Positions 154 through 2,441 of a DNA stretch of 64,000 bases are shown in pieces. The DNA is from Fluviicola sp. (lineage in GTDB: Bacteria; Bacteroidota; Bacteroidia; Flavobacteriales_D; Crocinitomicaceae): the NCBI GenBank assembly GCA_043584915.1, contig CP121319.1:2863228-2927227 (forward strand). The letters are read 5' to 3'. The notes beneath the pieces were generated by a model. The model had not been told where the DNA came from. It made no database searches and saw only the letters and a list, made by a program, of their open reading frames with translations. Every line of letters starts with the position of its first letter. Position 1 is the stretch's first letter. Both the position numbers and the translations under genes were made by a program.

Positions 154-190
154 TGAGAAGTACTACTTCGAAAGGGAACGGAAAGTGACC
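154..190. repeat. Short palindrome-bearing insertion, copy 1
   Basis: 37 nt absent from the paralogous site in the main gene (about 4836). Contains the palindrome gaagta-c-tacttc and the 16-mer ggaacggaaagtgacc (175-190). Confidence 0.7.
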
Positions 191-373
191 CGATGATGTC
201 TTTGATGGCCATGATTGCCTTAATGAATCCAGCGCCCGGAATGAGAAGACTGAGCAACCATTTGATTCCTGCCTCAATTACCTTAGTAATCAGCATGTCT
301 TTGATGTCCTGGAACTTGTCTTTCACGTATTTCCAGATACCCATGGCGCCCTCGGTTGCGAAGACTTTGAACA

Positions 374-417
374 AGAGAAAGTACTACTTTCGAAGACCAA
401 ACGGTAGAGCAGGGAAG
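374..417. repeat. Short palindrome-bearing insertion, copy 2
   Basis: 44 nt replace 5 nt of the main-gene sequence (about 5037). Contains the palindrome gaaagta-c-tactttc and ccaaacggt. Confidence 0.7.
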
Positions 418-480
418 AAGCCAGTCATCAGTGCATTTACGACAGGTTCGCCCATCATTTTAACGGCTTTGAGCTTGATG

Positions 481-523
481 ATGGTCACTTCCCGTTCCCG
501 TATCAGACGTTATACGTCTTCTT
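481..523. repeat. Short hairpin-bearing insertion, copy 3
   Basis: 43 nt replace 6 nt of the main-gene sequence (about 5105). Contains ggtcacttcccgttcc (483-498), which matches 2426-2441 at 15/16 positions, and the hairpin agacg-ttata-cgtct. Confidence 0.65.
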
Positions 524-741
524 CAACCGAGTCCAAGGACTTGTAAGGTAAGGTTAAAGACGCCACTGAGACTGAATATATCGTTTGGCATTTGGGTGCC
601 CATGGGGCCGAGGGAGCCCGTAAGCCATTCCAGTAATCCTCCGAGAAGGTTTGGGCAAATGACTAATAATTTGATTGAATGGAAAGAGAAAAGTCATAAA
701 TGGGCTCTGGTCTTTCTTGGAAAGCACCAATTATTATGCAC

Positions 742-1137
742 TCAATTGGAGTAAGTTTGTAATTGCATTTCAATACCAATATTGTCGTTAATGGCGTTTT
801 TTAGGATGCTATGAAATGTTATCAGTGAAACGAGTTTCGAATCATCATCATCATGAAGATTAACTTTTACATCAATATCTTCGTAATTTATGGTGACAAT
901 CTGATACCCAAATTCACGAAGCTCCCTATTGCTCAAAATAGATTCAATTTCCCTTGAAAAATCACCCAAAATTTTTTCTTGATCCTGAAAATTCAAAAGA
1001 TACTCACCATCTTTTGCTTCTGTTAAATTAAAACCAGATTCTTCGATTATCTTCTCAAATAAAAAACGGTCCTCACTTACATTGTAAGTCCAACTTAAGG
1101 AGTCATTCGTATTTTTGGTAGTTATTGTTATTTGCAT
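742..1137 (-). CDS. Putative immunity protein of the orphan toxin cassette (131 aa)
   Basis: Small acidic ORF. Its ATG (1137-1135) overlaps the TAA stop (1139-1137) of the upstream toxin C-terminal module by 1 nt (TAATG). No recognisable motif; the call rests on position only. Confidence 0.45.
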   Translation of the reverse strand: MQITITTKNTNDSLSWTYNVSEDRFLFEKIIEESGFNLTEAKDGEYLLNFQDQEKILGDFSREIESILSNRELREFGYQIVTINYEDIDVKVNLHDDDDSKLVSLITFHSILKNAINDNIGIEMQLQTYSN

Positions 1138-2424
1138 TATTTGTATGGTTTTACAAAAGTTGCTCTTACATGTCTTAAACCTCCTATGGTATCATCCTTG
1201 ACATCCTTGACAACCGAATATCCTTGTTCTTCTGCTCTGCGATAAGTCCATGTTTTTTTTGCTGCTTCATACTTATTTCCATGTTCCTCCATTGCTTTTA
1301 TATAGGCATGCAAGTTATCAGACATATTGTGTTCAGTTCTGCCTTTATAAATATCAGCGTCTGTCCATAAACCTTCAACACCTGACATCTGATCTCTTAA
1401 GGTTTCCTCTGCACCTTGAAACATTGAAGTGCCTACTCCCTTAATATAGGCTTTTTCTATTTGTTTTGGGACTAATAAATCTGTTTTAAGTAAATTCTCC
1501 TTAGATAAAAATGCAAATCCAATAGGATCTTTAGGAGGCCTTCTGTAGACATATGACAATGCTGGAGTAGCCCCTTGAAGATTCAATCCGAAGTAATTAA
1601 ATTGAAGGACTTTTTCATGGGCCGAATCGTCAACAATAGATTGTTCAATTCTAAAACCATTTGTTAATTCCTCATTCTTGATTTTCTTTACTAAGTTCCT
1701 AAAGGCTTTATTATTAATTTTTCCATCCTTCTTAGCTTTTAGTATCAGATCAAATGTCTTTTGATTGTTGATTTTAGAAGATACTTCACTCAATTGCACT
1801 GCATCTGCGTCCTCGTTATCAATCTCAATTTTGATTTTATCTCCTTTTTTGTCTGGGTTGACTTTACCCTGAACATGGACTGTATCTAGTCCATTTTCGT
1901 CGTGTTTATCAACTACAAGATGAAGTTTCTTCAACTCATACTTATTTGCTATTTGCTTGAGTTTTTTGTCAATTTCTTTTTTGTCTTTCCCTTCGGCAGA
2001 CTTGACAAATTTCGTTCCCTCATTGATACCACGGTTCAGGTCTTGCTCCATCTCTTTTTTAGAGCGTTCTTCTTTCCCTTTCTTATTTTTCTTCTTCTTT
2101 CGGAAAAGTTTTCTAGCCGCCTTCTTAGCCTTTATCAACAGCTTGCGAATCGCACGGTCAATTCTCTTGCGAATGGCTCAAACTACCGTTTGGCTTCTCG
2201 AAGCAATGCTTCTCGTTTAAAGATCTTCCCAACCTTCTTAGCCAAGCCATTCAAGCCTATTAAGCGAGCAAATAATCCAATAACTAACGTAATCAATTTT
2301 GCCAATCCGAACTCCATTGCTTTGGCAACGCCCGCAACGTCTCCACGGGCAAGTGCCAGAATTGCCTCCGTAATTGCAAGGATGAGCATGATAGCCGACT
2401 CGACAAAGAACACGATGATGTCTT
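1137..2424 (-). pseudogene. Orphan toxin cassette: conserved helix/Lys-rich linker plus a distinct C-terminal toxin domain
   Basis: 2217-2424 and about 2100-2174 match 4640-4846 and about 4560-4636 of the main gene (AIMLI..ARGD.AGVAKAMEFGLAKLITLVIGLFARLIGLNGLAKKVGKIF; KAKKAARKLFRKKKKNKKG). The sequence after the shared pre-toxin segment (KYxLKxL...GKVNP) is unrelated to the main C-terminus. A 42-nt insertion (2175-2216) splits it into ORFs 2183-2413 and 1137-2138. Confidence 0.65.
2175..2216. repeat. Short palindrome-bearing insertion, copy 4 (inverted relative to copy 2)
   Basis: 42 nt replace 'cttc' of the main gene. Contains accgtttgg (reverse complement of ccaaacggt in copy 2) and the palindrome gaagca-a-tgcttc. 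Confidence 0.65.
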
Positions 2425-2425
2425 A

Positions 2426-2441
2426 GGTCACTTTCCGTTCC
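2426..2441. repeat. 16-mer half-element at the 5' homology boundary of the orphan cassette
   Basis: ggtcactttccgttcc is the exact reverse complement of 175-190. Homology to the main toxin gene stops at 2424. Confidence 0.7.

Follow-up and report, generated by a model that had tools for sequence, protein, structure and literature searches.

Genus-restricted tiny modular hairpin repeats in the orphan toxin cassettes of a Fluviicola genome

We analysed a 64,000-nucleotide stretch of Fluviicola sp. contig CP121319.1 (positions 2,863,228 to 2,927,227; assembly GCA_043584915.1), hereafter the window, in which the toxin cassettes next to an intact toxin gene are interrupted by short hairpin-bearing repeats; unprefixed coordinates refer to the window, and those preceded by "genome" to the whole contig. 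The intact gene codes for a DUF4157-type toxin with an HExxH head, and is followed downstream by an array of promoterless toxin cassettes, with the start of the window falling inside the array. Polymorphic toxins such as Rhs, CdiA and MafB have such a layout, in which toxin-tip/immunity cassettes that lack a promoter but retain a homologous stretch come after the expressed gene, and the present locus is of the same kind as their orphan C-terminal cassettes. A genome-wide BLAST search yielded seven orphans and a second full-length paralogue between genome 2,841,600 and 2,865,720, and two of the orphans, A and B, are inside the window. The paralogue (genome 2,854,126-2,857,571) and the five further orphans are located upstream of it (genome 2,841,600-2,857,600), so that the array is about twice as long as the part visible in the window. 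In orphan B, the open reading frame (ORF) for the C-terminal domain (1137-2138) and the presumed immunity ORF (742-1137) are both unbroken. The toxin family is present in 5 of the 56 species-level genomes that make up our genus set.

Alignment of orphans A and B to the intact gene and to the second full paralogue revealed four inserts, e1 to e4 (Table 1), within 1-3 nt of where the original prediction had placed them, and none of the four is present in either full-length toxin gene. The inserts are real, but they are not clean insertions, as each replaces 0-9 nt of the target: e1 takes the place of 3 nt of the gene (ACA), and e2 and e3, of 45 and 43 nt, each stand in place of 6 nt, the net length changes being about +34, +39, +37 and +38 nt for e1 to e4, respectively. 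Frame breakage, predicted for at least three of them, extends to all four: e2 is in frame yet brings in a TAG codon, and e4 contains an in-frame TAG. A longer version of e3 occupies the same site in orphan o1, outside the window, and the e4 insert recurs at its site in orphan A, just beyond the window start, and in orphan o2. The hairpin cores of e1 and e2 are nearly identical and only 220 nt apart, and the module CCAAACGGTAG is common to e2 and e4 in opposite orientations, as had been noticed. The 16-mer GGAACGGAAAGTGACC is found exactly at 175-190 (+) and 2426-2441 (-), and with one mismatch at 483-498 (-), again in agreement with the first reading, giving three matches in the window versus 0.04 expected from shuffles. 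The occurrence at 2426-2441 had been taken for a half-copy; the repeat is indeed there, but it forms the 3′ end of a complete fifth element with a hairpin of its own (the boundary element), and the homology of orphan B to the toxin gene begins 1 base past this element.

Table 1. Features of the toxin locus in the window
Feature	Position	Strand	Description
Orphan A homology region	1-655	-	Broken copy of the conserved pre-toxin region; holds e1, e2, e3 and a 24-nt deletion
e1	154-190	+	Type A, orphan A, antisense to the toxin frame; hairpin GAAGT-ACT-ACTTC (157-169); 17-mer GGGAACGGAAAGTGACC at 174-190
e2	373-417	+	Type B, orphan A, antisense; hairpin GAAAGT-ACT-ACTTTC, then GAAGAC, then CAAACGGTAGAGCAGGGAAG
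e3	481-523	-	Type A, orphan A, sense; hairpin AGACGT-ATA-ACGTCT, then GATAC, then GGGAACGGGAAGTGACC
Orphan B homology region	2090-2425	-	Aligned to the intact gene
e4	2175-2216	-	Type B-like, orphan B, sense; hairpin GAAGC-ATT-GCTTC, GAGAAG, second hairpin CAAAC-GGTA-GTTTG
Boundary element	2426-2467	-	A2 subtype; hairpin GATG-TGCTGG-CATC, then AAGAAAAA, then GGAACGGAAAGTGACC
Intact DUF4157-type toxin gene	3905-8143	-	1,412 aa; insert-free reference ("empty site") for all four inserts

These inserts are members of a family of tiny modular hairpin repeats, 37-65 nt in length and non-coding, that is restricted to a single marine genus of Bacteroidota. On their top strand, they all start with AAGARAAA and continue into a hairpin of 5-7 bp, designated H, in which the stem sequence differs from copy to copy and the pairing is kept. 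H is a purine-flanked mini-hairpin (AAGARAAAGC, loop, GCTTTYGA) with a loop in many cases of the GNA or GNNA kind and frequently containing TAG, and it is joined to one of several 3′ modules. In type A (e1, e3 and the boundary element) it is followed by a few bases and the 17-mer GGGAACGGRAAGTGACC, which can fold on itself (GG-GA-AC[GGRAA]GT-GA-CC); in type B (e2 and e4) by GAAGAC and CAAACGGTAGTGCAGGGA (module CCAAACGGTAGTGCAGGGA); and in type C, represented by two inserts in orphan o2, by GAAGAC and a two-tier second hairpin with a covarying stem. No conserved frame was found in the inserts in a check of coding potential, and stop codons are present. A scan of window positions 1-3000 against Rfam 15 (E <= 10) gave chance matches only, none of them on any insert, and a full-text literature search for the 16-mer strings retrieved no paper.

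The co-variation of the palindrome arms, noted in the original prediction, was borne out: in 10 type B copies from 6 genomes, 98% of the cells in H are paired and three of the six pairs are changed on both sides, versus at most 55% pairing in slid controls. The dimeric binding site proposed along with it is unlikely for the first hairpin, the sequence of which varies freely while its pairing is kept. About 45 type A copies contain 245 Watson-Crick pairs, 5 G-T and 4 A-C pairs, the last two counts giving no indication of an RNA as against a DNA strand. DNA folding gave the five elements of the window -2.4 to -7.8 kcal/mol (z from -0.1 to -2.9), and the two-hairpin copies of type C had z of -3.4 and -4.3; taken singly, these structures are weak, and the support for the hairpins comes from covariation and not from energy. 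Two other structural assignments were rejected. Intrinsic terminators, which have a stable G+C-rich stem ahead of a T-run, are not a match, as the stems here are weak and only 5-6 bp long and run into GAAGAC or GAT, and a long-range helix joining the top of the hairpin to the 3′ module of type B, with a tRNA D-arm-like resemblance to GGTAGAGCAGGG, was 77% paired and showed covariation no better than shuffles.

We found the 17-mer in 22 of the 56 genus genomes, with a reversed-pattern control near zero; outside the genus, single 17-mer matches with one mismatch appeared in 7 of 297 other genomes of the order, close to the control level. A covariance model of H plus GAAGAC matched 52 of the 56 genomes, with 1-34 copies in each, and most of the copies in the genus are unconnected to toxin genes. 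The further copies that were to be sought are thus present in this genome and across the genus, and they are not specific to the orphan cassettes: other copies reside where FtsA, RF1 and further housekeeping genes end, within an IS3 transposase and as part of tandem arrays.

Within this genome there are about 26 element loci, all counts of loci and insertion events being hand tallies. Two tandem arrays of 6 and 10 units of about 101 bp (genome 2,936,880-2,939,560, some 10 kb past the window end) carry the 17-mer GGGAACGGRAAGTGACC in each unit, and both are directly upstream of genes for small DUF1573-like secreted proteins; the full hairpin, GCAAGC-GYA-GCTTGC, is seen in the array-proximal 101-bp unit alone. 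The 17-mer is also part of a 58-bp tandem repeat just 3′ of the RF1 gene, and right after the RF1-linked element (genome 381,140-381,330) a separate repeat of about 58 bp, GAGAGCCTCAATGTACTTTCTTAAACAGAAGAAAAGAGGGACATCGAGCACAACC, occurs in three copies before the next gene. Type B elements interrupt two of the four IS3 transposase copies (genome 3,818,500-3,818,545 and 1,619,873-1,619,914), and comparison with the two empty copies shows 45 nt in place of 6 nt, a net gain of 39 nt in frame. The copy at genome 3,818,5xx, when translated, has 13 in-frame codons added by the element, with no stop; the corresponding site of a related insertion sequence from another species (L010) also holds an element, which does bring in an in-frame TAG.

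H is also nested inside larger composite repeats. Large composite intergenic repeats at genome 1,910,300-1,911,900, 3,482,300-3,483,500 and 518,400-519,300 consist of CCTCACCCCAACCCTCTCC...GAGGGAG plus CCCCC...GGGGG hairpins, and H modules are nested within the CCCCC/GGGGG hairpin; one set of these repeats flanks the sole gene for a DUF559 (Vsr-like endonuclease) protein in the genome, which was considered as an enzyme candidate and discarded, being a single gene tied to a different repeat. A genome scan for generic GAAG...CTTC hairpins gave 247 matches versus 409 in the reversed-genome control; in the absence of enrichment, the family must be small and not findable from the hairpin alone. With the origin near 1.04 Mb and the terminus near 3.16 Mb, the top strand of the elements is mostly on the lagging side, which is confounded with gene direction and based on few events.

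Filled and empty sites were compared in 11 cases, taken from the orphans, from IS3 and from a second species; in these, inserts 37-65 nt long stand in place of 0-9 nt of target, and no target duplication of fixed length is seen. Terminal inverted repeats are likewise missing, the ends being AAGAGAAAG... and ...GTGACC, ...CAGGGA or ...GAGG, which are not complementary. The 3′ modules are freely mixed and the 3′ ends variable, and local copies, common in units of 32-136 nt, are arranged as direct tandems and not as inverted pairs. At least four other species have, upstream of rtcB, a copy that is flanked instead by an 18-30-nt duplication of the rtcB start region, and the corresponding site is empty here (genome 1,161,213). 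At these loci (L021, L025, L027 and L034), one or two decoy rtcB starts, each an ATG with about six codons, run into an A2-type element, which creates short upstream ORFs; the hairpin there covaries between species (GATGC/GCATC versus GACGT/ACGTC). A special link of the family to rtcB was rejected, as this is a single orthologous locus of one subfamily that is empty in the present genome.

Further insertion sites are at the ends of two housekeeping genes, FtsA and RF1, which we compared in 30 species each. In both genes the element begins immediately after the stop codon, as judged from the empty orthologous sites. FtsA terminates in FVDE(D/E) in the closest relatives and mostly in F(A/T)EE(D/E) elsewhere, whether or not an element is present. 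In the seven species with an element at FtsA, the stop codon and the loop are followed by an exact 10-nt reverse complement of the last bases of the gene from that very species, as in the arm pairs AAGATTGATC / GATCAATCTT, AAGACTAAGC / GCTTAGTCTT, AAGATTAAGC / GCTTAATCTT and AGGAATAAGC / GCTTATTCCT, each of them an exact match; one decaying copy is an exception. The 3′ modules beyond these arms differ between species, and 23 of the 30 species, with the same kind of C-terminus, have no element there. RF1 natively ends in ...KGEEA*, or in KGEEV* in G010 and some of the empty species; in the six species with an element, GAA GAA GCG TAG is followed by CTTCT, and GAG GAA GCG TAG by CTTCC, and the site is empty in 24 of 30 species, including the four closest relatives. 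At FtsA and RF1, then, coding sequence makes up the 5′ arm of the hairpin and serves as the template for the 3′ arm. A host origin of the 5′ arm does not apply to the orphan and IS3 inserts, in which the whole element was imported with a foreign arm.

In other species, a long housekeeping ORF runs into H and ends there at 10 of about 27 type A loci, in most cases so that its stop codon falls in the loop, and the element is in sense orientation; those of the genes with a family match include ones for a TonB-dependent receptor, a VWA protein, cobalamin adenosyltransferase, FtsA and RF1. This placement of the stop cannot be taken as a general rule, as it holds for type A copies and for only 1 of 30 H plus GAAGAC loci.

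The concentration of the elements in orphan homology, as originally claimed, is real: 11-12 of the genomic loci, at 8 or 9 separate insertion sites, fall into about 6 kb of it, and no element was found in the toxin-tip or immunity ORFs of this genome. Orphan o2 alone has five inserts, of which o2b and o2c have a common 3′ module (91% over 35 nt). The same orphan is also broken by a 23-nt insert, ACCGCGAAGCAGCACCGAAGGTA, with no H hairpin (genome 2,845,493-2,845,515), of which one near-identical copy exists at genome 206,983-207,005. A second species, G063, for which a complete genome is available, has an orthologous orphan that shares the upstream flank and shows the same accumulation, with three inserts. 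One of them is at the site of o2b, and is therefore ancestral, with the second hairpin changed from CGGCA/TGCCG to ACATC/GATGT; the other two are lineage-specific, and inserts i2 and i3 of G063 both have the two-hairpin type C architecture, a further case of likeness between inserts of a single orphan, as with e1 and e2 and with o2b and o2c.

We somewhat favour, at a little better than even, an explanation in which these are non-autonomous modular hairpin repeats that were copied by short-range template switching and accumulated in the unselected DNA of the orphans. The elements encode nothing and, under this scheme, would be copied by host replication or repair via microhomology-guided template switches, the nascent strand quitting its template, copying an existing element and rejoining a few bases off register. 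Switching within the hairpin, or quasi-palindrome correction, would keep the two arms perfectly complementary, and may rebuild the non-coding arm on the sequence across from it. Template-switch mutagenesis that perfects inverted repeats at quasi-palindromes is an established replication error (PMC7202029, PMC3820800). Orphan homology being untranslated and free of selection, copies could survive there and seed more nearby, which would account for both the pile-up and the broken frame; we infer the copying mechanism and the reason for the enrichment from these patterns. Any block to orphan expression, or to recombination with the main gene, would be a consequence and not a demonstrated purpose, and silencing of the orphans, one of the roles first suggested for the inserts, is possible only as such a side effect.

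Several observations weigh against this explanation. The 17-mer is identical or nearly so across 22 species, which passive copying does not explain and which points to sequence-specific recognition by a protein or RNA, or to a function. The 5′ end (AAGARAAA) is sharp, and resembles a terminus set by an enzyme more than a point at which switching happened at random. For both genes that have empty sites for comparison, insertion is exactly at the base after the stop, and such docking fits template switching only if the TAG/TAA loop of the donor provides the microhomology. The density in orphans, by hand count about 4-5 inserts per kb and far above the rest of the genome, may reflect targeting rather than tolerance. 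Mobility itself is deduced from the comparison of filled and empty sites, and an unknown enzyme family would escape Pfam searches. The conservation of the 17-mer, the sharp 5′ end, the docking at stops and the orphan density together keep alive both an enzyme or binding protein and a function for some of the copies. A more far-reaching proposal, that this is a new tiny mobile element with a mechanism of its own, whether enzymatic or structure-driven, which docks after stops, reverse-copies the last codons of the host, preferentially invades silent toxin cassettes and acts as a brake on their switching or expression, appears doubtful to us.

Movement of non-autonomous elements by a dedicated, so far unrecognised enzyme, possibly a nuclease or transposase for single-strand DNA with recognition of both the mini-hairpin and the 17-mer, in the manner of RAYT with REP or TnpA with IS200/IS605, is in our judgement unlikely. 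The defined 5′ end and the strong conservation of the 17-mer across species speak for it, as do the independent filled and empty sites and the perfect arms with no wobble, which fit a DNA substrate. GNA and GNNA loops closed by C-G are unusually stable single-strand DNA mini-hairpins, and loops of this kind (GCGAAGC, GCGAAAGC, GCGTAGC) occur in the family. However, neither Y1/RAYT (PF01797), to be looked for according to the original prediction, nor TnpB or reverse transcriptase was detected in this genome by Pfam searches. Y1 occurs in 19 of the 56 genus genomes, only 3 of which are among the 22 with the 17-mer, and in none of those with 24-34 copies of H; it does not track the elements across the genus. 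In another species, a weak Y1-transposase-like ORF (G043:C7:9318-9601) lies 25 nt from an H plus GAAGAC match, the sole adjacency of this type seen. Moreover, the effect on the target is not constant, being a loss of 0-9 nt or a duplication of 18-30 nt, the 3′ ends are variable and modules are exchanged between copies, and a 3′ arm that copies codons of the host is not expected of a transposon with fixed ends.

Still less probable is the proposal that these are working host cis-elements at gene ends, such as stabilisers of mRNA 3′ ends, terminators or protein-binding sites, with the orphan copies silencing the cassettes or limiting their recombination. The long ORFs that end inside a sense-oriented type A hairpin are in its favour, and so is the persistence of copies at orthologous sites in several species with compensated stems; in addition, type A copies by inspection have stops in all three frames, and e4 is 37 nt upstream of a still-open C-terminal domain ORF in three orphans. 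On the other hand, the closest relatives do without the RF1 and FtsA copies with nothing else changed, the stems are short, weak and not followed by a T-run, two of the copies in the window have antisense orientation, others break the IS3 transposase or nest in other repeats, and the stop codon is so rarely in the loop at H plus GAAGAC loci.

We also considered whether the elements could be sites or scars of a cassette-shuffling site-specific recombination system, similar to attC or shufflons, with inversion or exchange between the 16-mers at 175-190 and 2426-2441, and regard this as very improbable. The two 16-mers do form an inverted pair 2.2 kb apart, and orphans B and o3 both begin exactly at an A2-type element with the same 28-mer (genome 2848098-2848125 for o3) and different flanks on both sides. 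Yet inversion between the 16-mers yields no sensible gene, 5 of the 7 orphans have no element at the boundary, and most copies in the genus are away from the toxin genes, themselves limited to so few genomes. No invertase, integrase or other tyrosine or serine recombinase is encoded within 300 kb of the locus, the nearest PF00589 match being about 300 kb away and the sole PF00239 match at 1.68 Mb. Finally, an origin at the RNA level, with an mRNA cut at the stop codon, folded back, copied back, joined to other RNA and returned to DNA, would explain the stop codon in the loop, the insertion of the FtsA and RF1 elements exactly after the stop with an arm copied from the last codons, and the position of one subfamily immediately upstream of rtcB, which codes for an RNA ligase, in at least four species, but it is the least credible of all, as no reverse transcriptase was found in this genome, rtcB is one dispersed locus among many and is empty here, and the orphan and IS3 inserts are not at stop codons.

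For the toxin locus, the outcome is that inserts turn most of the homology through which the orphans could take over the expressed toxin tip into a trap: if the crossover falls upstream of an insert, a stop and a frameshift would come along with it, so that the orphans are partly locked or decaying rather than a ready toxin reserve. To our knowledge, dense colonisation of the orphan homology of Rhs, CdiA or MafB by tiny repeats has not been reported. On a practical level, the elements give rise to false frameshifts and truncated gene calls in the annotation of the genus.

Comparison with known systems shows that the REP/MITE-like label initially offered is suitable in the broad sense of a dispersed hairpin-repeat family, but not by definition, as there is no GTAG/CGTC tag, RAYT, terminal inverted repeat or target-site duplication. 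A GTAG or CGTC tetranucleotide tag at the end of the palindrome defines REP (PMC3733652). Like REP/REPIN-RAYT systems, the elements are short and palindromic, are often at gene 3′ ends and conserve structure over sequence (PMC3116915, PMC3733652, PMC3333891). They differ in the flanks, which in about 45 copies are 5′ AAGA... and 3′ GA(T/A)..., in occurring at 1-34 copies per genome with no RAYT/Y1 here, in forming direct tandems and not inverted doublets, and in inserting inside genes and pseudogenes. MITEs differ from them in having terminal inverted repeats and a target-site duplication of fixed length. Palindrome elements derived from IS200/IS605 have subterminal hairpins at both ends and a TnpA (Y1) or TnpB partner; the hairpin layout of types A and B is not two-ended, and neither Y1 nor TnpB was found in this genome. 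Sites of the attC, shufflon or invertase kind go with a cognate integrase or invertase encoded nearby, and none was found near the locus. Quasi-palindrome mutagenesis perfects inverted repeats that were imperfect, in agreement with the exact fit of arms to host sequence in this family, but is described as point or short-patch mutation and not as a means for a repeat family to spread (PMC7202029, PMC3820800).

The family makes it possible to test how very small repeats move, and whether template switching at hairpins can create and spread sequence families. Its signature is unusual, with stems that are exact reverse copies of the final codons of the host and a stop codon in the loop. Double-hairpin elements are also known from Allomyces. 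The double-hairpin elements and GC clusters of fungal mitochondria are similarly 30-80 nt long, have one or two hairpins with compensatory changes, are both intergenic and intragenic, and spread by an unknown mechanism (PMC4478555, PMC3787672). They differ from the present family in being organellar and GC-rich, with no tie to stop codons or polymorphic toxin cassettes. The closest likeness in behaviour is to the small dispersed repeats (SDR) of heterocyst-forming cyanobacteria, reportedly described by Elhai and co-workers in 2008 (Genome Res 18:1484) as "very small mobile repeated elements", which likewise are tens of nucleotides in length, fold into hairpins, are dispersed, nested in repeats and non-coding, and have neither a known enzyme nor classical transposon ends. 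The Fluviicola elements are from another phylum and have no sequence relation to SDR, are modular, with a shared hairpin and alternative 3′ modules, replace a few target bases, and at gene ends build their stem from the last codons of the host. By behaviour, they nevertheless belong to an SDR-like class, being shorter than 100 nt and non-coding, with a compensatory hairpin, filled and empty sites at IS3, rtcB, RF1, FtsA and the orphans, and nesting, and they provide, with many filled and empty sites in a set of 56 related genomes, a clean natural case in which repeats only some tens of bases long have spread, no matching transposase gene having been found.

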